Shown here: piece by piece, positions 19,394 to 29,081 of the stretch
Layout: every line of letters starts with the position of its first letter
Position numbering within the stretch: the first letter of the stretch is position 1
DNA from: a virus
Taxonomy: Duplodnaviria; Caudoviricetes
Length of the DNA: 64,000 bases
Direction: 5' to 3' (one strand)
Virus record (IMG/VR): IMGVR_UViG_3300020048_000009
Span: 64,001-128,000 of that record
Translations under genes and position numbers: made by a program
Notes under the pieces: model-generated
Told to the model about the DNA's origin: nothing
Database searches by the model: none
What the model saw: only the letters and a program-made list of their open reading frames with translations

Positions 19394-19470
19394 GAGCTCG
19401 TAGAGGAAATGGTTAACTCATGTGGTTTTCATCCACAAGATTGCCGGTTCGAATCCGGTCGGGCTTACCA
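19394..19470 (+). tRNA. trnE: tRNA-Glu(TTC)
   Basis: Cloverleaf; TGTGG-TTTTCAT-CCACA; CCA. Confidence 0.92.
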
Positions 19471-19561
19471 TATAAGCATGACGACTAGACTAGCAATGCT
19501 TTCAGCTTATAGCTAAACTAGTGACACGGCGGAGAGCACGTCGGACAATTTTATAATTTAT

Positions 19562-19647
19562 GGATAGGTGCTCCTGAATGGTAAGGGGACGGTCTTGAAA
19601 ACCGTAGGCTAACCCCACTGCACGTTCGATTCGTGTCCTATCCTCCA
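19562..19647 (+). tRNA. trnS: tRNA-Ser(TGA)
   Basis: ACGGT-CTTGAAA-ACCGT; long V-arm; CCA. Confidence 0.9.
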
Positions 19648-19694
19648 ATTTGTGGCGCGTCACGGTGTGTGTATAAGTCGCTTCGATTTATTAT

Positions 19695-19772
19695 GGGGCC
19701 ATAACTCAGTCCGGCTAGAGTGTCTCCCTTGCACGGAGAAAGTCGGGGGTTCAAATCCCTCTGGCTCCACCA
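19695..19772 (+). tRNA. trnA: tRNA-Ala(TGC)
   Basis: G3:U70; TCTCC-CTTGCAC-GGAGA; CCA. Confidence 0.95.
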
Positions 19773-19776
19773 ATTT

Positions 19777-19868
19777 GGCTGCATTCCGGATGCAGTCGGA
19801 TCAATTCACCTGATGTACTAGAGCGAGTCAGGAATTATGAAACAGTAAAATTCTGTATCGGTCTGCCA
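19777..19868 (+). ncRNA. Structured RNA ending in CCA, not a cloverleaf
   Basis: GCTGCA/TGCAGT hairpin; CGGATC/GGTCTG; CCTGA/TCAGG; ACAG/CTGT. Confidence 0.4.
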
Positions 19869-19876
19869 ATTTATGT

Positions 19877-19952
19877 AGAACGTTCGCGTAGTGGTTAGCG
19901 CACTAGACTGTCGATCTGGATTTCACGGGTTCGATTCCCGTACGTTCTGCCA
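19877..19952 (+). tRNA. trnD: tRNA-Asp(GTC)
   Basis: CTAGA-CTGTCGA-TCTGG; G73; CCA. Confidence 0.92.
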
Positions 19953-19962
19953 TTTTAATTTA

Positions 19963-20039
19963 CGGAGTGTGGAGGCAATTGGCTGCCCACGTGCCTTGGA
20001 CGCATGGTTATGTCGGATCGTTCCCGACCACTCCGACCA
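19963..20039 (+). tRNA. trnP: tRNA-Pro(TGG)
   Basis: CGGAGTG/CACTCCG; CTTGGAC loop; atypical T-loop ATCGTTC. Confidence 0.9.
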
Positions 20040-20052
20040 ATTTTTCTAGAAA

Positions 20053-20127
20053 GCCAACTTGACTGAATGGTTAAGTACCTCATTTGTAATGAGACCCATA
20101 ACGGTTCGATCCCGTTAGTTGGCTCCA
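20053..20127 (+). tRNA. trnT: tRNA-Thr(TGT)
   Basis: GCCAACT/AGTTGGC; TTTGTAA loop; CCA. Confidence 0.9.
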
Positions 20128-20220
20128 TATTTTATATACGAAAGTAATATATTCTAAAACCGGTACTTTCTTTTCAAATATGTATACCGGCTTTAATAAA
20201 TAAAATTAAAGGAATATATT

Positions 20221-20946
20221 ATGAATACAGTAATTTGTCCAATATGTGGAAAAGAATACAAACAATTAATAGCACAACATATTTTTAAACACGGTTTGAC
20301 TATTGAAGAATTTAAACTTAAATTTCCAGATTTTTATTTAGGTAGTCCGGGTATTGAAAGTACTAGAAAAGAAAAAATGGTACTTCAATATGAAAAAGAT
20401 AATATACGATGTAAACATTGTAATAAATTAATAACATCACCAAATAGAAAACATAGAATCTTTTGTAGTACTTTATGTAAAGCTACTTATTATTCTTTTA
20501 ACAAAGAGCTTGTTCAAACAAAAGGAAAACATTTTAAAAAAATCTGTTGTGCATGTAATAAAGAATATAAAGCCTTTAGAGATAATTCTAAATTTTGTTC
20601 TAATAAATGTCAACAAGAATATATTAATGTTCAAAAAATTAAAGAATGGAAAGACGCCACAGAACAGGGAAAACCTTTTCCCTATAGAAAATGGATAAGA
20701 CATTATCTTTTTAAAAAATATGATAACAAATGCTGTAAATGTGGGTGGAGTAAGATTAATCCTTTTACAGGAAATGTTCCTTTAGAACTTGAACATATTG
20801 ATGGTAATTCAAATAACAATAAAGAAGAAAATTTAGAATTGTTATGTCCCTGTTGTCATGCCTTAACTTCCACATATAAGGGTGCAAATAGAGGTAATGG
20901 AAGATTCTCTAGAAGACAAAGATACCAAGAAGGTAAATCTTATTAA
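20221..20946 (+). mobile_element. HNH homing endonuclease with Zn-finger N-terminus
   Basis: CCKCG...LELEHIDGNSNNNKEENLELLCPCCH; ATAAATA upstream. Confidence 0.88.
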
Positions 20947-20957
20947 TAAAATTTAAT

Positions 20958-21031
20958 GCGTCTGTAGCTCAATGGTCGAGCCCGTCCTTGCCAAGGATGT
21001 TATACGAGTTCAATTCTCGTCAGATGCTCCA
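20958..21031 (+). tRNA. trnG: tRNA-Gly(GCC)
   Basis: TTGCCAA loop; U73; CCA. Confidence 0.92.
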
Positions 21032-21040
21032 ATTTAAAAT

Positions 21041-21115
21041 GTTTAATATGAGCTAATGGTAAGCTTCCAGGTTTAAAGACCCAGAGTATATAGGTTCAAC
21101 TCCTATTATTAGATA
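21041..21115 (+). pseudogene. Degenerate tRNA, anticodon unresolved (TAA or TTA register)
   Basis: D-arm and ATAGG-TTCAACT-CCTAT T-arm intact; anticodon stem mismatched; no CCA. Confidence 0.55.
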
Positions 21116-21120
21116 TTTAT

Positions 21121-21195
21121 GCGTTTGTAACTCAATTGGCAGAGTGCTGGGCTTCCAACCCGGATATACGGGATCATACCCCGTCAGATGCTCCA
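21121..21195 (+). tRNA. trnG: tRNA-Gly(TCC)
   Basis: CTGGG-CTTCCAA-CCCGG; T-loop ATCATAC. Confidence 0.88.
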
Positions 21196-21201
21196 TTTAA
21201 A

Positions 21202-21275
21202 GCGATGTTAGCAAAATGGTTATGCGGCGGTCTGCAAAACCGCTTACATGTGTTCAATTCACATACATTGCTCCA
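21202..21275 (+). tRNA. trnC: tRNA-Cys(GCA)
   Basis: GCGGT-CTGCAAA-ACCGC; U73. Confidence 0.92.
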
Positions 21276-21285
21276 TTTTATTTAT

Positions 21286-21361
21286 GCTCTCTTATTTCAG
21301 TGGCTAGAATGCTTCCTTTACACGGAAGAGGTCAGGAGTTCGAATCTCTTAGGGAGTACCA
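21286..21361 (+). tRNA. trnV: tRNA-Val(TAC)
   Basis: CTTCC-TTTACAC-GGAAG; CCA. Confidence 0.92.
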
Positions 21362-21367
21362 TTTTTT

Positions 21368-21444
21368 CGAAGTATAACTCAGTTGGTTAGAGTACCTGTC
21401 TGATACACAGAATGTCGGTGGTTCGAATCCATCTACTTCGACCA
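21368..21444 (+). tRNA. trnI: tRNA-Ile(GAT)
   Basis: CTGATAC loop; CGAAGTA/TACTTCG; CCA. Confidence 0.92.
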
Positions 21445-21451
21445 TTTTATT

Positions 21452-21535
21452 GGGACTGTGGCGTAATGGCAGACGCGCTGGTTTTAGACACCAGTGGAGA
21501 AATCCGTGAAGGTTCAAGTCCTTTCAGTCCCACCA
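21452..21535 (+). tRNA. trnL: tRNA-Leu(TAG)
   Basis: CTGGT-TTTAGAC-ACCAG; V-arm GGA-GAAA-TCC; A73. Confidence 0.92.
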
Positions 21536-21564
21536 GTTTTGTTTCATTAAAGCATATAATATCA

Positions 21565-21636
21565 GTGTATAAAAGCCAATGAATATACTACTATATTAAT
21601 ATCAATTACGCAATTGATACTGTTCTTTGAATAACA
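21565..21636 (+). promoter_or_regulatory. Promoter + hairpin + boxA-like site
   Basis: GTGTAT-N18-TACTAT; ATCAATT-acgc-AATTGAT; TGTTCTTTGAATAAC at 21621. Confidence 0.65.
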
Positions 21637-21646
21637 ATTTTTAAAT

Positions 21647-21735
21647 CGCAGGGTGGCGTAATTGGCAGCCGCAGCGGACTTAAAATCCGCTGGGTGGTAA
21701 CACCCGTGAGGGTTCGAGTCCCTCCCTTGCGACCA
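21647..21735 (+). tRNA. trnL: tRNA-Leu(TAA)
   Basis: GCGGA-CTTAAAA-TCCGC; long V-arm; CCA. Confidence 0.92.
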
Positions 21736-21994
21736 TTGATCCTTAGTTAGAAGATTGTGTTCTGTCAGCCCATCAAGATAGACGTTTGAGATCATGCCTC
21801 TTCTGGAACAAGTATATAAACTTTAAGCCTTTGAGCGGACAGGTTTATATTAAGTGAAATCCTTGATGGTCGGCGGTGTATTCCAGTCTTTTGTTTTAGT
21901 ATGATATTAATGTTTTCGTTACCTGACCGTTGGACTAAGTGCACTTCGTAAGAAGGCTCCAATCAATCAGCTTCTCCATTAACCAGCAGCATAT

Positions 21995-22071
21995 AGGCGT
22001 GTAGCTCAGCTGGTTAGAGCGGGATCCTTATAAGGTCTAGGTCGCTGGTTCAACTCCAGCCACGCCTACCA
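21995..22071 (+). tRNA. trnI: tRNA-Ile(TAT)
   Basis: GGATC-CTTATAA-GGTCT; AGGCGTG/CACGCCT; A73. Confidence 0.85.
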
Positions 22072-22088
22072 TTTTTTAGAAAGTAATT

Positions 22089-22238
22089 ATGCTTTATTAT
22101 TGGACAAGAGTTTATAATACAGGTGCTGCCCATTATTGGGAAGTAGAAAGTGAAGAAGCTTTACTTATCGCTGCAAAAGAAAAGTATGGTGAATCACTTT
22201 TTGATTATGGAATGACAACTCAAAAGAAAACAAAGTAA
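22089..22238 (+). CDS. 49-aa hypothetical protein
   Basis: Hand-translated ORF between tRNAs. Confidence 0.45.
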   Translation: MLYYWTRVYNTGAAHYWEVESEEALLIAAKEKYGESLFDYGMTTQKKTK

Positions 22239-22250
22239 ACAATTTTTAAT

Positions 22251-22332
22251 GGGAATGTATCTCCCCCGCCTTCTAAGCGGACGTTAAAAGAGTAATTGGA
22301 GTATGCAGGTTCGATCCCTGTCTTTCCCGCCA
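22251..22332 (+). ncRNA. Rearranged tRNA-Arg(TCT)-like RNA lacking a positional D-arm
   Basis: GGGAATG/CTTTCCC-G-CCA; CCGC-CTTCTAA-GCGG; GCAGG-TTCGATC-CCTGT. Confidence 0.7.
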
Positions 22333-22417
22333 TTTTAGCTAAGAGTAGTAAATATTTAATTTACTTATATATTTAAGCTGCGCTTTTAATAAATAAAATT
22401 AAGGGTATAACTTAAAT

Positions 22418-22924
22418 ATGAAAAATAAATGTCATAAATGTAATGTAGATATTCCAAACAGGGTTAAAATAGATAACTGTTGGAAAACAATTAACCATAG
22501 AAAATTTTGTTTAATCTGTTCACCGTGGGGTAAACATAATACTAAAAGCGTGGATCCTTCTAAAAGAACGCTTTCAGAAAAAGAAAGACATTCCTGGAAA
22601 AATTTAACAGATAAACAAAAAACATGTCATAAAACATCACAACATAAGAGAGCCGTTAAGCGTAAGGTTGAACTTATTAATATGCGAGGTGGGAAGTGTG
22701 AAAGATGTGGTTATGATAAATGTATTGATGTATTTCATTTTCATCATATAGATCCATCGTTAAAAACCATGAACATGGGATTAAATTCTCTATGGTGTAA
22801 ATCATGGGAAAAGATTTTACAGGAATTTGAAAATTGTAAAGTATATTGTTCTAATTGCCACATGGAAGTGCATTATGAATTAAAAAATCCTGATAATAAA
22901 CAATGTACTTTAATTTCAAAATAA
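22418..22924 (+). mobile_element. HNH homing endonuclease
   Basis: GGKCERCG...FHFHHIDP...CKVYCSNCHMEVH; ATAAATA upstream. Confidence 0.85.
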
Positions 22925-22936
22925 TATGATTAGCCA

Positions 22937-23007
22937 GTGTATAAAAAGAAGAGATTATCATATTATATATCTATCAAGTATGTACTTGAGCATGTTCTTT
23001 GACAATT
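22937..23007 (+). promoter_or_regulatory. Promoter + hairpin + boxA-like site
   Basis: GTGTAT-N18-TATTAT; TCAAGT-atgt-ACTTGA; TGTTCTTTGACAATT at 22993. Confidence 0.65.
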
Positions 23008-23029
23008 AATAGCAAATGATTTTTTTAAT

Positions 23030-23114
23030 GGAAGCGTGGCCGAACGGCTAGGCATCGGACTTTTAATCCGAGGGAGAAATCCTAACGCAGGTTCGACCCC
23101 TGTCGCTTCTACCA
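23030..23114 (+). tRNA. tRNA with Lys(TTT) anticodon on a class II long-V-arm body
   Basis: TCGGA-CTTTTAA-TCCGA; V-arm GGA-GAAA-TCC; 3-bp D-stem; A73. Confidence 0.85.
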
Positions 23115-23132
23115 TCTTTTTAGTTTTCAAAT

Positions 23133-23206
23133 TGTCCCATAGTGTAATGGCAGCACAGCACCCTTTGACGGTGTTTGTATTGGTTCAAGTCCAGTTGGGA
23201 CAACCA
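23133..23206 (+). tRNA. trnQ: tRNA-Gln(TTG)
   Basis: GCACC-CTTTGAC-GGTGT; T1:A72. Confidence 0.92.
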
Positions 23207-23208
23207 AT

Positions 23209-23282
23209 ATTCCCATGTTGTAAAGGATGCATGCGGCGCTACGAACGCTTCGGTTGGAGTTCGAATCTCTATGGGAATACCA
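23209..23282 (+). tRNA. trnR: tRNA-Arg(ACG)
   Basis: CTACGAA loop; ATTCCCA/TGGGAAT; CCA. Confidence 0.85.
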
Positions 23283-23287
23283 TTTTA

Positions 23288-23346
23288 AAGACGCAAACAG
23301 CAATTCAAATAAAAATTCACTGTTAATGAAAAAAAAAACGCGTCTT
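23288..23346 (+). ncRNA. Anticodon-stem-loop mimic (Asn GTT) in an AAGACGC/GCGTCTT stem
   Basis: TTCA-CTGTTAA-TGAA at 23316-23330. Confidence 0.5.
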
Positions 23347-23354
23347 GTTTTTAT

Positions 23355-23429
23355 AGTAGAGTAGGCAAGTGGTAATCCGCCTCCCTGTTAAGGAGGACAG
23401 CGCTGGTTCGATCCCAGCCTCTACTGCCA
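23355..23429 (+). tRNA. trnN: tRNA-Asn(GTT)
   Basis: CCTCC-CTGTTAA-GGAGG; G73. Confidence 0.92.
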
Positions 23430-23432
23430 CTT

Positions 23433-23555
23433 TGGGAACAGATGGTTAGCGCCATTTGGCATATTTATTCATGTAGTATGCCTAACCCATTTATATTTTT
23501 GATAAATAAAATAGAGGTTACGCTAAGAACCTCTTTAAAATAAAGGTAAAATAAT
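23433..23555 (+). ncRNA. Endonuclease-leader structured RNA, copy 2
   Basis: Loops TTAGCG (23446-23451) and CGCTAA (23521-23526). Confidence 0.7.
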
Positions 23556-24236
23556 ATGATTAATAAATTAGATGAATCATGGAAGCAAGTAAACGGTTTA
23601 TATAAATGTCCAATATGTAGTAAAGAGTATTCTAAAAAAGGAATTTGTTCGCATATCTTTAGATCACATACAAAAGACGGTAAATATAATTCTTTTAAAG
23701 ATAATAACAGATTATATACTTCATCGTGGAATAAAGGTTTAATAAAAGAAACAGATCTTAGAATCAAGAAATCTGGTGAGAAACTTAAAGAAAGTCTTAA
23801 CTCTGGTAAAGTAATACCACCACAAACAGGAAAACCTATTGCTCCTGAAATAAAAGCTAAAATATCCAATACGATGAAGATTGCTCATAAAGAAGGAAGA
23901 GCGTGGAATATTGGAAAGTCTAGATGGAATAACAAAGCTTCATATCCAGAAGAATTCTTTATGAAGGTTATTGAAAATGAATTTGAGGATAAGAATTATA
24001 TAAGAGAATTTAATGTTGGTATTTATTCTATAGATTTTGCATGGACCGATAAAAAGTTAGCTATAGAAATAGACGGACAACAGCATAAACGATTTGAAGA
24101 ATATAAACAGAGAGATCTTCGGAAAGATGAATGTTTATTAGAGAATGGATGGAAAGTTCTAAGAATTTTATGGATTGATATGTATAAGGATCCACACAAG
24201 TGGATTAAAATTGCTAAAGATTTTATACATAATTAA
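23556..24236 (+). mobile_element. Putative homing endonuclease, DUF559/Vsr-like nuclease with C2H2- and NUMOD-like N-terminus
   Basis: CPICSK..HIFRSH; YSIDFAWTDKKLAIEIDGQQH..RD..L..NGWKVLRI. Confidence 0.82.
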
Positions 24237-24249
24237 GAATTTTATTAAT

Positions 24250-24325
24250 GCGATTGTAGCTCAGTAGGCAGAGCGTCGGACTCTTAATCCGAAGCGCGTG
24301 GGATCATAGCCCTCCAGTCGTACCA
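24250..24325 (+). tRNA. trnK: tRNA-Lys(CTT)
   Basis: TCGGA-CTCTTAA-TCCGA; T-loop ATCATAG. Confidence 0.88.
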
Positions 24326-24363
24326 TTTTGATGTACAAGATCAGATAGACATGAGAATTTTAT

Positions 24364-24437
24364 TGCGCGGTTGAGGAGAGGCCCCTCTGCAGGCTCATAA
24401 CCTGCCTACGCCGGTTCGAATCCGGCCTGCGCAACCA
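24364..24437 (+). tRNA. trnM: tRNA-Met(CAT)
   Basis: GCAGG-CTCATAA-CCTGC; CCA; initiator vs elongator unresolved. Confidence 0.88.
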
Positions 24438-24446
24438 ATTTAACAA

Positions 24447-24597
24447 CACGGCGTGAGGAAAGAACTTGTTCTATGATTCTTAATTCGATTCTAGTAAGAT
24501 AGTACTGTCTGAACGAGGATGTTATTAAGCGGAGAACAGAAATCCTACCGGAAACATGTCCGGAAATCGCAGGTATCGAATCCTGTCGCCGTAACCA
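24447..24597 (+). ncRNA. 151-nt initiator-tRNA-like RNA with 83-nt D-loop insertion
   Basis: C1:A72 mismatch; AGGA/TCCT D-stem; CCGGA-AACATG-TCCGG; T-arm; A-CCA. Confidence 0.65.
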
Positions 24598-24603
24598 ATT
24601 TTA

Positions 24604-24679
24604 GGAGTTTTGTTGTAGATGGTTCGCAAAACGGTCTGAAAAACCGAAGGATAGGGTTCGATCCCCTGAAACTCCACCA
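24604..24679 (+). tRNA. trnF: tRNA-Phe(GAA)
   Basis: CTGAAAA loop; GGAGTTT/AAACTCC. Confidence 0.9.
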
Positions 24680-24690
24680 TTTTATTTTCT

Positions 24691-24778
24691 GGTAGTTTAT
24701 TCCGTAGGTAGTCTCGGGGCGCACTGTAAATGCGCTGGCTAATACCCTAAGGTAGTGCAACTCTATCAACTACCACCA
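24691..24778 (+). tRNA. trnY: tRNA-Tyr(GTA)
   Basis: GCGCA-CTGTAAA-TGCGC; long V-arm; T-loop TGCAACT. Confidence 0.88.
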
Positions 24779-24783
24779 GCTTT

Positions 24784-24920
24784 AAATAAGGACAGATGGT
24801 TAGCGCCATTTGGATGTTTTTCATATGACACGCCTAACTTATTTAATTATTTTTTCATATTTTTTGATAAATAAAATAGAGGTTACGCTAAGAACCTCTT
24901 AAAAATAAAGGTAAAATAAT
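24784..24920 (+). ncRNA. Endonuclease-leader structured RNA, copy 3
   Basis: AAATAAG/CTTATTT closing stem; loops TTAGCG and CGCTAA (24886-24891). Confidence 0.7.
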
Positions 24921-25457
24921 ATGAGTAAAAAATTAATTGATCGCATCGGTGCTGATAAAATCATTGAAGTCTGCAAATCTGCAAAAACATTTAAAGAAGC
25001 ATGTGAAAAACTTAACTGTGGTTATAGATATTTAATGACAGCAGCCGTTGAATTAAATGTTTTCGATGAGTTAAAGTCTAGATCTAAAGAATTTGCACAT
25101 AAATTTAAAAAGGCTGATGGTTCAAGATTATGGTTGATTAAAACTAATACGGGACAAGGCTTTACATCATACAGAACTGATACTAAAATTTGGTGTGAAG
25201 AACTTTTTAAAGGAAATCATACATCAACCGCTGTTAGAATTAAAACACATTTAATTAATGCTGGGTATAAAGAAGATCATTGTGAATGCTGTGGTATTAA
25301 TGAATGGAACAATAAGCCAATAAGTTTACAATTACATCATATAGATGGAAATTCTAGAAACAATCAGTTAGATAATTTAAAAATTCTTTGTCCTAATTGT
25401 CACGTTCAAACAGATAATTATGGTTCTAAGAATGCTCGAAATAAAGAGCGCGAGTAA
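24921..25457 (+). mobile_element. HNH homing endonuclease
   Basis: CECCG...LQLHHIDGNSRNNQLDNLKILCPNCH. Confidence 0.88.
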
Positions 25458-25473
25458 AGATTCCACCATTTTA

Positions 25474-25545
25474 GGGCAGCATGAAGGTACAAGCTCTACC
25501 TATAACTTAGGTACCTGGTGAGTTCAATTCTCATCCTGTCCACCA
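25474..25545 (+). pseudogene. Degenerate tRNA-like RNA with CCA
   Basis: GGGCAG/CTGTCC; GTGAG-TTCAATT-CTCAT; non-canonical D and anticodon regions. Confidence 0.55.
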
Positions 25546-25551
25546 TTTTAT

Positions 25552-25628
25552 GTAGCAGTAATTCAAGAGATAGAAATGCTGGGGTAATTCCTGGCGTGTT
25601 GTTGGTAAAAATCCAGCCTGCTACACCA
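25552..25628 (+). pseudogene. Degenerate tRNA-like RNA with CCA
   Basis: Perfect GTAGCAG/CTGCTAC-A-CCA; T-loop TAAAAAT; no valid anticodon loop. Confidence 0.55.
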
Positions 25629-25630
25629 CT

Positions 25631-26064
25631 TTCAGTTGTAATTCAAGCCATGTCCGATAGGGTACTTCTATATGAGCGCGCCCTATTTGTAAAGAATGAG
25701 ATAGACGAGAGTCGGCCGTAAGAGAATCCTCTGCAGGGGTTCAAAGACTAAAGACTCAGGAGGAACGTGTTACGTGAAATCCTCATTGACAAAGATCCCT
25801 AATGAACGGGAATGATAGTAAGTTAGTAAGAGAGATATTTGTGATTATGCCTTTAGTGTAACGGTTAGCACGTGGGATAATTCCCTTAGATCGGTTCGAC
25901 TCCGCAGGAAAAAACAAATCACATACAGAACCTTGTGAAATCCTTATATGGTACCTATCCAACTGAGCCATTCCAAGAATCCCCAGAGACGGTGTAGTAG
26001 GGATATACGAAGCAACACATTCATAGGCCTATCGGTGTTGTTGTAGATAGGACAAGACCGTTTC
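25631..26064 (+). ncRNA. Large structured RNA (about 430 nt) with embedded tRNA-like domain and 3' pseudoknots
   Basis: TTCAGTTG/CAACTGAG; GATAGGGTAC/GTACCTATC; GAGACGG/CCGTTTC; CCTATC/GATAGG; GCAACAC/GTGTTGT. Confidence 0.65.
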
Positions 26065-26069
26065 ATTTT

Positions 26070-26206
26070 TATACTGAGTAATGTAGAGAATTGGCAAATC
26101 AGCGGGCCAGTAGGCAAGTCTTAGAGATGCTGAAATCCGGCGGAATAACATTAGCTGGTAAGAGGTTATTCATTTATGGGTTCGAGTCCCATCATTATTC
26201 AGTGTA
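26070..26206 (+). ncRNA. tRNA-like RNA on a 14-bp closing stem with expanded anticodon region, no CCA
   Basis: CTGAGTAATG/CATTATTCAG; AATTGG D-loop-like; ATGGG-TTCGAGT-CCCAT. Confidence 0.55.
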
Positions 26207-26237
26207 TTTCTTTTTAAATTTAGTTATAATATAATTT

Positions 26238-26546
26238 ATGAAAACCAACAAATTTGTTTTTGAAATCAGTGTTGAAGGCCCAGGTTATAATGAAGAAAAT
26301 GTAGAAGAACTTTATGGTGAAGGTGCCATGTATAATCCAGATTTTTCAGAACACTCTGTAGTCATGGATGAGGTCTATGAAATCTTTAAGGATGCATTAA
26401 TGCAGCGAATGGAATTTAAAATGAATGCATTAATTAAACCTGTTCCAAATGAAGCAGCACAAAAAGCTTATCTAACTCATGTTGATGCAGCAATTGAGCT
26501 TTATAGAAAAGTTCAAGGAAGTTTAAAATTCGTTAGAAAAGAATAA
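26238..26546 (+). CDS. Hypothetical protein
   Basis: Behind GTGTAT-N17-TATAAT promoter at 26202. Confidence 0.65.
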   Translation: MKTNKFVFEISVEGPGYNEENVEELYGEGAMYNPDFSEHSVVMDEVYEIFKDALMQRMEFKMNALIKPVPNEAAQKAYLTHVDAAIELYRKVQGSLKFVRKE

Positions 26547-26552
26547 TTTATG

Positions 26553-26684
26553 GGGGTTGTTGGCTGAATAGGCATAAGCAGGGCACAAGAGGCCTGACAA
26601 AGCATAAAGGCATGTAGAAAACCGGCCGGGAATATTCTATATGTACTGTGCAGCGTGGAGGTTCGATTCCTTCCAGCCCCACCA
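26553..26684 (+). ncRNA. 132-nt tRNA-like RNA with giant variable arm
   Basis: GGGGTTG/CAGCCCC-A-CCA; class II D-arm; CATGTAGAA/TTCTATATG helix; GGAGG-TTCGATT-CCTTC. Confidence 0.65.
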
Positions 26685-26690
26685 ATTTAT

Positions 26691-26765
26691 ATAGCAGTAG
26701 TTCAATTGGCAGAATGGCGATCTCCAAAAGCGATGAAGTGGGTTCGATTCCTGCACATCCTGCCA
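26691..26765 (+). pseudogene. Degenerate tRNA-Trp(CCA)
   Basis: CTCCAAA loop, D and T arms present; acceptor strands ATAGCAG/ACATCCT do not pair. Confidence 0.6.
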
Positions 26766-26770
26766 TTTAT

Positions 26771-26849
26771 GGTAGTATTAGCTTAGTCTGGCCTAAAGCT
26801 ACGGACCGTGACTCCGTGATCGTGGGTTCGAATCCCATATACTTCCCCA
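26771..26849 (+). tRNA. trnH: tRNA-His(GTG)
   Basis: G-1:C73; ACGGA-CCGTGAC-TCCGT (C33). Confidence 0.85.
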
Positions 26850-26855
26850 AAATTA

Positions 26856-26922
26856 ATTCATAATTCGATCCCACTATTTGATAAATAAAATAAATATCAA
26901 ATAGTGGGATCGAATTATGAAT
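26856..26922 (+). repeat. Perfect 28-bp inverted repeat enclosing a late promoter and burying the next ATG
   Basis: ATTCATAATTCGATCCCACTATTTGATA / TATCAAATAGTGGGATCGAATTATGAAT. Confidence 0.9.
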
Positions 26923-27858
26923 ACTTTATTAATAAGACATTGTGAAAATTGTGGAATAGAACATGATGGAACATATGGATCTGGAAGATTTTGTTCTAAA
27001 GAATGCGCTAGAAGTTTTTCTTCTAAATTAAATACAAACATACGAAATGAAAAAATTTCAAAAACATTAAAAAATAAACATATTAGAGAAACTATATGTA
27101 AAAAATGTGGAACTATTGTATATACAAAGGGTTCTAGTCCAAATGTATGTTGTGACAAATGTAGACAAAAAAGAAAAAGCAATACCCCCTATTGTAATAG
27201 ATGTGGTGCCGAACGTGGAAAATGTAAATATCCATCTTTATGTAAAAAAAAGTTAAAATTATTTGATGGATTAGAAAAATATTTTGGATTTGATAAAACA
27301 AGTTTTGGGTCGAAAAGATATTATGAAGAAATCTTTAGAATAAAAGCAATGATAGAAGAAGATTATTATGAAAATAATAACTCAACAGTTGAATTATGTA
27401 AAAAATATAATCATACAGCATGTGGTAGTTTTATAAGAATACTAAAAAGCATTGATATTGTATTAAGAAATTTAAAAGAATCTTCATTACTGGCATATAA
27501 AACTGGTAGATCTGTTATATCAATAGATAATAGTACTCAATATAAACATGGGTGGCATACTGCATGGGATAACACACAAATATTTTATAGATCTTCATAT
27601 GAACTTGATTATGCTGAAAAATTAGATGAGCAAAAAGTAAAATATGACGTCGAAGCTTTAAGAATATCTTATTTTGATACTCAAAAATGTATAGAAAGAA
27701 CGGCAATTCCTGATTTTTATCTTCCTGAAACTAATACTATAGTTGAAATAAAATCTTCATGGACATATAATGAACAGAATATGAATGATAAAATTAAAGC
27801 TTATAAGAAGCATGGTTATAATTTTAAACTAATTTTAGATCATAAGGAAGTTGTTTAA
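26917..27858 (+). mobile_element. Putative homing endonuclease, TnsA-like PD-(D/E)xK domain with Zn-finger N-terminus
   Basis: CENCG..GSGRFCSKEC; FYRSSYELDYA...PDFYLPETNTIVEIKS. Confidence 0.75.
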
Positions 27859-27927
27859 AAAATTTATTTTTTTGCGTATAATTATAGTATACAAATAAAT
27901 TGTAATACAAATAAGGAAAACAATATT

Positions 27928-28068
27928 ATGTTAAAGAGAGATAAGCTCGGTAGATTCGTTGCTGCTAAGAAAGCACCTAAGGCTAAGCCCTGTGCACCAT
28001 GTAAACCTTCCAAGAAGGATTCATGTAAACCTTGCGCACCTAAGAAAACAAAGAAATGTTGTAAGTAA
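27928..28068 (+). CDS. 46-aa Lys/Cys/Pro-rich peptide
   Basis: MLKRDKLGRFVAAKKAPKAKPCAPCKPSKKDSCKPCAPKKTKKCCK; AAGGA RBS. Confidence 0.6.
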   Translation: MLKRDKLGRFVAAKKAPKAKPCAPCKPSKKDSCKPCAPKKTKKCCK

Positions 28069-28331
28069 TTTTCAACGTTTAGATAAATAAAAATATCAAA
28101 CCTGCGGTGCCTCTATTCGGGTGGATTTATTCCTTCGTACTGAATATGCATAATTCCGCGGGTATTTTATTTCAGGTGTACTTTTTAAATAAATCCGTGT
28201 ATTATATAATCATAACAAGTTAAATGGAGATGAGACAATGGATATTCCTTTTGCAGAATTAATGATTAAAGCTGGAGAATTGAACAAAGATACTTTCGTA
28301 ATCGATGTTGATACTCTTAGGAGATGGTTAG

Positions 28332-28547
28332 ATGAACAAAATCAAAAAGAATCAAACACAATGTAATTGTGAATCCCAATGTAATTGGGAAGTTCAAGGA
28401 ATGTCTCCTTCTCCCATACAGAATAAAACAATTGTTTTTAGAATGTCATGTGATGGTAAATACTTTACGACAACTACAAATGAAGTATCAACCCTCACCA
28501 TCTGCCCTCACTGTAATCAACCCATAACTCACCTAAACAAGGTTTAA
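28332..28547 (+). CDS. Zn-ribbon hypothetical protein
   Basis: CPHC near C-terminus. Confidence 0.55.
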   Translation: MNKIKKNQTQCNCESQCNWEVQGMSPSPIQNKTIVFRMSCDGKYFTTTTNEVSTLTICPHCNQPITHLNKV

Positions 28548-28551
28548 CATT

Positions 28552-28983
28552 ATGCGTACACAAATAGAAGGTATAAAATACGAGATGCCTGATGGCTATT
28601 ATCGCGTGACTAATAAGCTCGATATGGCCAGACGTGATGATTTAGTTTGGGGATCTTGTGAAGACCTATGGTCTAAACCTACAGGAAGACTTGATCTTGT
28701 TGGTAATTATTATGCGGTTATCCGTAAAGGTGTGAAACCTCCAAAAGTAATTAAAGAGAATTCTAAACCACCAGCTTATATAAAAGTTACTTCAGTTGAT
28801 GATATCAAAAAATATAATCTTAAAGAAGGTTCTAAGATTATTATAAACGATTTGAAATATACAATCGTTAAAATCCATTCAGCTGGTAATTATGGTTGGG
28901 GATTGTTAAGCCAACAATTTGCTATTTGTCTTATCACATCAAAACTTGAGCTTTTAATAAGCGCTTATACTCTTGGTATATAA
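28552..28983 (+). CDS. Hypothetical protein
   Basis: Co-oriented ORF. Confidence 0.65.
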   Translation: MRTQIEGIKYEMPDGYYRVTNKLDMARRDDLVWGSCEDLWSKPTGRLDLVGNYYAVIRKGVKPPKVIKENSKPPAYIKVTSVDDIKKYNLKEGSKIIINDLKYTIVKIHSAGNYGWGLLSQQFAICLITSKLELLISAYTLGI

Positions 28984-28989
28984 TTTAAT

Positions 28990-29081
28990 GGAAGTGTGGC
29001 CGAGCCTGGTTTATGGCGGCTGATTACTAATCAGCAGGGGCCTTAAAACCCCCGTAGGTTCAAATCCTATCGCTTCCTCCA
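28990..29081 (+). tRNA. trnS: tRNA-Ser(ACT)
   Basis: GCTGA-TTACTAA-TCAGC; V-arm GGGG/CCCC; U73; followed by terminator. Confidence 0.85.

Follow-up and report, generated by a model that had tools for sequence, protein, structure and literature searches.

At positions 26553–26684 on the plus strand of the stretch analysed here—a window of 64,000 nucleotides taken from an IMG/VR virus record of 211,678 bases, the completeness of which is estimated at 84%—lies a 132-nt element with the frame of a leucine tRNA, a stunted hairpin at the anticodon position, and a giant variable arm, which element cannot become a canonical tRNA by any single cut. The interpretation that we favor, at a probability of about 0.55, is that of a stable, non-decoding structured RNA derived from a tRNA-Leu that would present a tRNA-binding protein with a ligand or decoy. 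The element is a member of a phage tRNA array (19394–29081), located on the same strand and containing 24 genes called by ARAGORN, interspersed putative homing-nuclease ORFs, and several other odd tRNA-like genes, in the DNA of a large aquatic phage, the GC content of which is about 33%. A 102-aa ORF of no known family (26238–26546, plus strand) ends 6 nt upstream, and a chimeric tRNA-Trp(CCA) with an unpaired acceptor stem (26691–26765, plus strand) begins 6 nt downstream; no dedicated promoter or terminator for the element was found above background.

Anatomy of the element

A preliminary description of this DNA had recognized a Leu-like tRNA body here, and all the helices that it named are indeed present in the sequence. 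Alignment with the phage's own Leu tRNAs found U8, A14, A15, G18G19, the C-G-U48 closure, the T loop, and A73-CCA in place, the residues of the core contacts U8-A14, A15-U48, G18-U55, and G19-C56 being likewise present in that alignment. The 5' strand of the acceptor (26553–26559) pairs with 26674–26680 through six Watson–Crick pairs and a U5-G68, the third pair being G3-C70 and hence not the G3-U70 of tRNA-Ala and tmRNA. A connector consisting of one extra U followed by U8 and G9 (26560–26562, as placed by the same alignment) leads into a class II D arm of the Leu type (26563–26579), with GCT/AGC at 26563–65/26577–79, A14, A15, and G18G19; the motif of that arm stands as described, but its 3-bp stem is not predicted thermodynamically (p about 0), the arm being assigned here from the motif. 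There follow the stunted hairpin (26580–26595), which leaves 13–14 nt between positions 26 and 44 as against 17 and has no U33, and then the variable region of 61 nt (26596–26656), recognized by folding and by a base-pair swap in a homologue. That region is composed of a linker (26596–26601), an outer 5-bp helix GCATA/TGTGC (26602–06/26647–51), an inner 10-bp helix (26610–19/26635–44), a GC-rich palindromic tip (26622–29), and a 3' end AGCGT that closes with the Leu-type C-G-U48; the CATGTAGAA/TTCTATATG helix and the GGGC/GCCT hairpin are both present in the element. The T arm (26657–26673), which had been called perfect, comprises 5 bp, one of them a G-U, and a TTCGATT loop, while the final segment (26674–26684) contains the 3' strand of the acceptor, A73 (26681), and an encoded CCA (26682–26684), all these segments being on the plus strand.

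When introns were permitted, ARAGORN called the real sequence and none of 1000 dinucleotide shuffles; without introns the program missed the element, and the Rfam tRNA model (RF00005) gave no match at 26553, the gathering score not being reached. The call of a tRNA-Pyl(CTA) with an intron was rejected, since it depends on U37 and on a stem with a mismatch. Folding energy by itself is unexceptional (z −1.58), and the pair probabilities computed with Vienna were 0.83–1.0 for the acceptor, 0.77–0.79 for the outer arm helix, and 1.0 for the inner one.

Two partners are possible for TGTGC (26647–51): pairing with GCATA (26602–06) creates the giant variable arm, whereas pairing with GCACA (26583–87) creates an insert that replaces the anticodon loop. 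Under constraints that enforced the tRNA body, the variable-arm fold reached −40.4 kcal/mol versus −35.4 kcal/mol for the anticodon-insert fold, and the respective unconstrained pair probabilities were 0.78 and 0.0, so that the giant variable arm of the preliminary description prevails over its rival by some 5 kcal/mol. A natural variant fits that fold as well. A wastewater contig of depth 10 (X5) departs from the window by four differences—G26592A, A26607G, the loss of 26608, and T26647C—which leave the tRNA body untouched and the arm still paired. In the variable-arm fold, T26647C together with the A-to-G change converts an A-U pair to G-C, whereas the anticodon-insert fold loses an A-U pair without compensation. 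This swap argues modestly for the variable-arm fold, its weight being limited because it is a single event; with only two near-identical homologues, the case for covariation comes down to that one change, found in a single contig of depth 10. In the target, 5 nt separate the end of the arm helix from the T stem, provided that no isolated G26596-C26654 pair is formed. A kissing loop between the two arms was rejected, inspection revealing only a 4-bp GGCC/GGCC pairing, which is broken in X5.

The anticodon position and the alternatives to a structured RNA

The preliminary description had drawn the anticodon arm as GGGC-ACAAGAG-GCCT without U33; a hairpin is there and U33 is missing, but that register is disfavored (p 0.05–0.08), the unconstrained ensemble preferring a shifted one with A26580-U26595 and a 6-nt loop (p about 0.9). 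The G26592A change in X5 further weakens the GGGC/GCCT register. In either register the arm is 3–4 nt short and U33 is absent, in agreement with the earlier statement that there is no valid anticodon. Compared with a canonical tRNA-Leu, the element has the 7-bp acceptor, the 5-bp T stem, and the A73-CCA, and it lacks an anticodon arm of 17 nt containing U33 and a purine at 37, the normal variable-arm length, and a passing Rfam score. By established tRNA geometry, one would not expect so short an anticodon arm to extend as far as a codon and decode it, and the element is almost certainly incapable of reading codons.

The stunted loop still holds CAA and AAG, both of them corresponding to Leu, which triplets are probably relics. 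Because the loop contains these triplets and the array has no Leu(CAA)—the Leu tRNAs called by ARAGORN being Leu(TAG) at 21452 and Leu(TAA) at 21647—descent of the element from a Leu gene appears likely on sequence grounds. That the short hairpin might make of the element a working Leu(AAG) or Leu(CAA) decoder we hold to be very unlikely: ARAGORN does read AAG once the variable arm has been shortened in silico, and further tRNAs of this phage are odd as well (C33 in tRNA-His; A34 in tRNA-Phe and tRNA-Ser), but the arm has the deficiencies just mentioned, the C-G pair of the AAG register is lost in X5, and tRNAs with variable-loop aptamers were only marginally active (PMC7590224).

Nor does any single cut lead to an ordinary tRNA-Leu(CAA), against which outcome the preliminary description had set its proposal. 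An ARAGORN deletion scan being too permissive (736 of 1276 deletions were called), we used instead a strict test in which all single deletions were searched for a 5-bp stem and a Y-U-NNN-R loop; no deletion of the target gave a canonical anticodon arm, whereas, as a positive control, Leu(UAA) was recovered in about 16 other long Leu-frame genes. An intron-carrying tRNA, in which the 59 nt between GCACA and TGTGC would be removed and the flanking halves ligated, by the phage RtcB, for instance, might draw on those roughly 16 genes, on the perfect 5-bp stem that GCACA/TGTGC would form, and on the RtcB and other ligases encoded in the genome. We judge it very improbable, though, in view of the negative strict test, of an insert fold that is worse by 5 kcal/mol and has one pair broken without compensation in X5, and of the failure to find the splicing endonuclease PF01974 in the 84%-complete genome. 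No group I core or other Rfam intron matched at the element, and a 59-nt insert is too short for a group I intron.

[quoted passage not shown] The further suggestion, that the element could be charged and serve as an aminoacyl donor, survives only in part: A73 and the core are present, but the long arm and the failure to find a donor-enzyme gene in the 84%-complete genome weaken the proposal. When the variable arm was extended to the size of that of tRNA-Ser, both the kcat and the affinity of the A. aeolicus LeuRS were reduced (PMC2377443); leucylation of the element is doubtful, and by analogy with that experiment the element would at best be poorly leucylated. A nonribosomal leucyl donor, charged by LeuRS and used by a transferase, would find its A73, U8-A14, A15-U48, G18/G19, and T loop all in place and could dispense with the anticodon arm; it is nevertheless quite unlikely, considering the effect of the longer arm on LeuRS, a discriminator A in only 17 of the 26 non-spliceable clusters of comparable genes (see below), and the absence of any match to L/F-transferase, CDPS, or class Ia synthetase (PF03588, PF16715, PF00133) in the 84%-complete genome.

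The Rfam tmRNA model (RF00023) gave a match spanning exactly 26553–26684 (E 1.3e-5), from which one might propose a miniature tmRNA-like RNA, with a tRNA-like domain and a long helix and without a tag frame. The match, however, scores 18.7 bits against a cut-off of 47 and stems from the acceptor and T arm only; moreover, the element has G3-C70 instead of G3-U70, the UUCGAC D-loop motif and the tag ORF are absent, and no SmpB gene was found in the genome, so that we give this alternative hardly any credence. An antisense or guide role was likewise rejected, the best match in the genome (13 nt, E 0.17) and an 18/21 antisense match to the T5 tRNA-Arg (E 3.9) both being at the level of chance.

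Distribution of the element and its setting in the array

A homologue search, as the preliminary description had recommended, located the element in related phages (X3 and X5), from two studies other than the source and in lineages with differing downstream Trp genes. In X3, a 33.6-kb lake contig from a different study, the element is unchanged and the upstream ORF is swapped for other DNA, while the other array segments differ from the window at about 6% of the positions. Because the identity between the window and X3 runs on to 26729, where the Trp gene of the window turns into the type of the syntenic relative L019, the identity of the element may result from recent recombination rather than from selection. 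L019 itself is without the element and has the 102-aa ORF, which ORF is thus unlinked to the element, being replaced in X3. The contigs of X5, from a run labelled RNA-Seq that probably contains DNA, bear on presence and not on expression, and two further runs (X4 and X6) do not cover the element and are uninformative on its presence. Against cultured phages blastn returned matches to the T arm only, the 3' part matching phage tRNA-Leu genes; pattern searches of IMG/VR, the JGI metagenomes, and GTDB produced only chance or coding matches and no further homologue, and searches with the neighboring proteins found no array-bearing relatives except L019. The element is an accessory, exchangeable cassette and not an essential gene.

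The adjacent tRNA-Trp(CCA) (26691–26765; cf. L019 1821–1895) is a recombinant, the 5' half belonging to the X3 lineage and the 3' half to the L019 type, with the junction at the anticodon loop, at about 26729. Because its acceptor pairs at just 4 of 7 positions, versus 7 of 7 in L019, this gene is probably nonfunctional.

A cassette of this sort might also be in neutral decay: a former Leu(CAA) gene would have acquired an insert and shed its anticodon arm, and would since then have hitch-hiked by recombination in the array. The presence of Leu(TAG) and Leu(TAA) without Leu(CAA) in the array, the CAA in the stunted loop, the absence of the element from L019, and the recombinant Trp gene with its broken acceptor stem, which indicates that broken genes persist here, are all consistent with such a history. 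That the acceptor, elbow, and CCA are intact, that none of the four changes in X5 touches the body or unpairs the arm, and that the same layout recurs in unrelated phages speak against it, and we consider decay unlikely.

Several other genes of the array and its vicinity are unusual in their own right. Odd anticodon loops occur at 21041–21115, 28990–29081, and 26772–26849, Phe(AAA) and Ser(ACT) having A34 and His(GTG) having C33. A second over-long class II tRNA-like gene (26077–26203; 23.5 bits with the Rfam tRNA model, below the cut-off) has an insert at the anticodon position and a long variable hairpin and no CCA; that gene is skipped in the X3 contig and partly present in X6. A tRNA-Arg(UCU)-like gene without a D arm and with a long 3' segment lies at 22251–22332, and a long perfect AT-rich inverted repeat (26854–26924), which attracted spurious miRNA matches in Rfam, precedes a nuclease-like ORF at 26917. 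Directly after the array is a conserved gene for a Lys/Pro/Cys-rich peptide of 46–49 aa (27928–28068; L019 2581–2730), with no homologue found in the protein database. A lone tRNA with a CUA anticodon was also noted (G000 140246–140322; L015), yet TAG still serves as a stop in large ORFs (5/85).

Over-long Leu-frame genes and the proposed role

A generic IMG/VR pattern (a Leu D loop, 65–95 nt, and C-G-U48 plus T arm) retrieved 44 distinct genes of 120–149 nt with paired acceptor stems at 73 loci, the T5 RNA1 among them. These genes form 31 clusters, 5 of which restore Leu(UAA) or are T5 RNA1, whereas 26 do not. In 15 of the latter 26, exactly 2 nt separate the end of the last helix from the T stem—the geometry of a Leu variable arm—a spacing seen in 20% of the controls with shuffled middles. 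Five of the genes (L189, L190, L232, L234, and L237) have the layout of the target, a 15–19-nt hairpin plus a 46–59-nt arm, in unrelated sequences; none of the middles in the class resembles the insert of the target, and the conservation of the elbow across the class is partly built into the search pattern. When 18 of the loci were submitted to Rfam, some genes were labelled as weak tRNAs only, with no other family given. A TGACAA word shared among members was dismissed as not above shuffles (439/500).

Among the genes retrieved in large phages are Leu(UAA) genes with an anticodon-loop insert of 47–62 nt (L198 4289–4423, L204 1815–1950, L241, L214, L263, L205, L231, L251, and L194), from which one cut restores CTTAAAA. 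Most of these inserts form a small hairpin with a terminal ACCA, a GGGGCAGCACC-like motif being frequent; they resemble a miniature tRNA nested in the loop and may be excisable, intron-like modules. In T5 RNA1 (L017 4502–4645) and its relatives L196, L200, L212, L218, and L236, removal of a single stretch of 40–41 nt likewise brings back a loop of canonical appearance, which in the T5 group reads CTTAAAA; to judge by these sequences, T5 RNA1 may well have arisen from a Leu(UAA) gene that acquired an insert. In L004 (4012–4159, minus strand), a 148-nt tRNA body has an anticodon stem around a degenerate tRNA-like insert, and visual inspection suggests that a single cut would yield Ile(UAU).

The element belongs with T5 RNA1 and T4 RNAC in being a tRNA-like gene of excessive length within a phage tRNA cluster, and it has neither sequence homology with RNA1, RNA2, or RNAC nor their arm layout. 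T5 RNA1 (rna1, T5s03; NC_005859 30501–30644), annotated as a "tRNA-like stable RNA with unknown functions," resembles the target in its place in a tRNA array, its Leu-type D arm, C-G-U48 and T arm, its length of about 134 nt, and its fit to the same generic pattern; but RNA1 has a normal variable arm, a 40–47-nt insert in the anticodon loop from which one cut yields CTTAAAA, and no encoded CCA, whereas the target has the stunted anticodon hairpin, the giant variable arm, and an encoded CCA, the middles being dissimilar. RNAC and RNAD of T4 (species 1 and 2), the roles of which are unknown (PMC3014915), are likewise small RNAs of 119–139 nt in a tRNA cluster, and RNAC has a T arm and two hairpins; RNAC, however, is without a D arm or a Leu identity core, and the sequence search returned no match to it. 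Closer to RNAC than the target is the approximately 150-nt tRNA-like gene at 24447–24597 of the window, with GAGGAAA near the 5' end followed by a long hairpin, a short hairpin, and a T arm.

With class II tRNA-Leu (RF00005, including the phage Leu(TAG) and Leu(TAA)) the target shares the acceptor, D arm, C-G-U48 plus T arm, and A73-CCA, while differing in a variable region of about 60 nt as opposed to some 14–16, in the short anticodon arm, and in one extra U. Engineered variable-arm fusions (V-Spinach, aptamer-tagged tRNAs; PMC7590224) similarly use a tRNA frame as a stable chassis for a hairpin, but are synthetic and keep the anticodon, whereas the target is natural and has lost it. An allo-tRNA or tRNA-Sec was rejected, the target having a 7/5 branch and not 8/4, 9/3, or 8/5. 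YrlA-type Y RNAs have a permuted order with the T arm first; the order in the target is normal, and no Rfam match to that type appeared even at E 10. In the literature we found no description of the class or of the giant-variable-arm form, most subscription journals lying outside the search.

As to how such an RNA might arise and act, we infer its expression, processing, and partner as follows. The element would be co-transcribed with the array, and RNase P and the 3' tRNA-processing enzymes, reading the elbow, acceptor, and CCA, would cut it out as a stable RNA, much as the species I and II RNAs of T4 are presumed to come from a tRNA precursor (PMC2330249). The Leu frame would be a chassis displaying the long hairpin, and during infection the RNA would most likely engage a tRNA-binding protein as its ligand or as a decoy, a host tRNA-targeting defense factor and a phage RNA-repair partner being candidates. 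Elsewhere the genome encodes RtcB, Rnl1- and Rnl2-type ATP-dependent RNA ligases, RlaP, a CCA-type nucleotidyltransferase, Thg1, and DUF2828, and jumbo phages use a repair kit of this sort against tRNA-cleaving defenses (PMC7824862); the possible link to anti-tRNA defense is drawn from that gene set and that report.

More broadly, and only tentatively, phages may make wide use of an anticodon-less Leu-tRNA frame as a plug-in chassis, on which interchangeable variable-arm domains of 45–80 nt would each bind a specific host or phage protein, as a decoy against a tRNA-targeting defense, for example. A single member, with two close homologues only, adds little beyond the class; the element does show how broad and modular the kind is, and also that such genes are overlooked or mislabelled by tRNA finders, as in the tRNA-Pyl call above. 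Being short and easily synthesized, the element would enable direct tests of charging, EF-Tu binding, processing, and decoy activity. The genomes of T4 and T5 have for decades carried tRNA-like small RNAs with no assigned role in their annotations; if the chassis reading is true, it would define an undescribed class of functional RNAs and would explain those long-puzzling RNAs of the T4 and T5 tRNA clusters.
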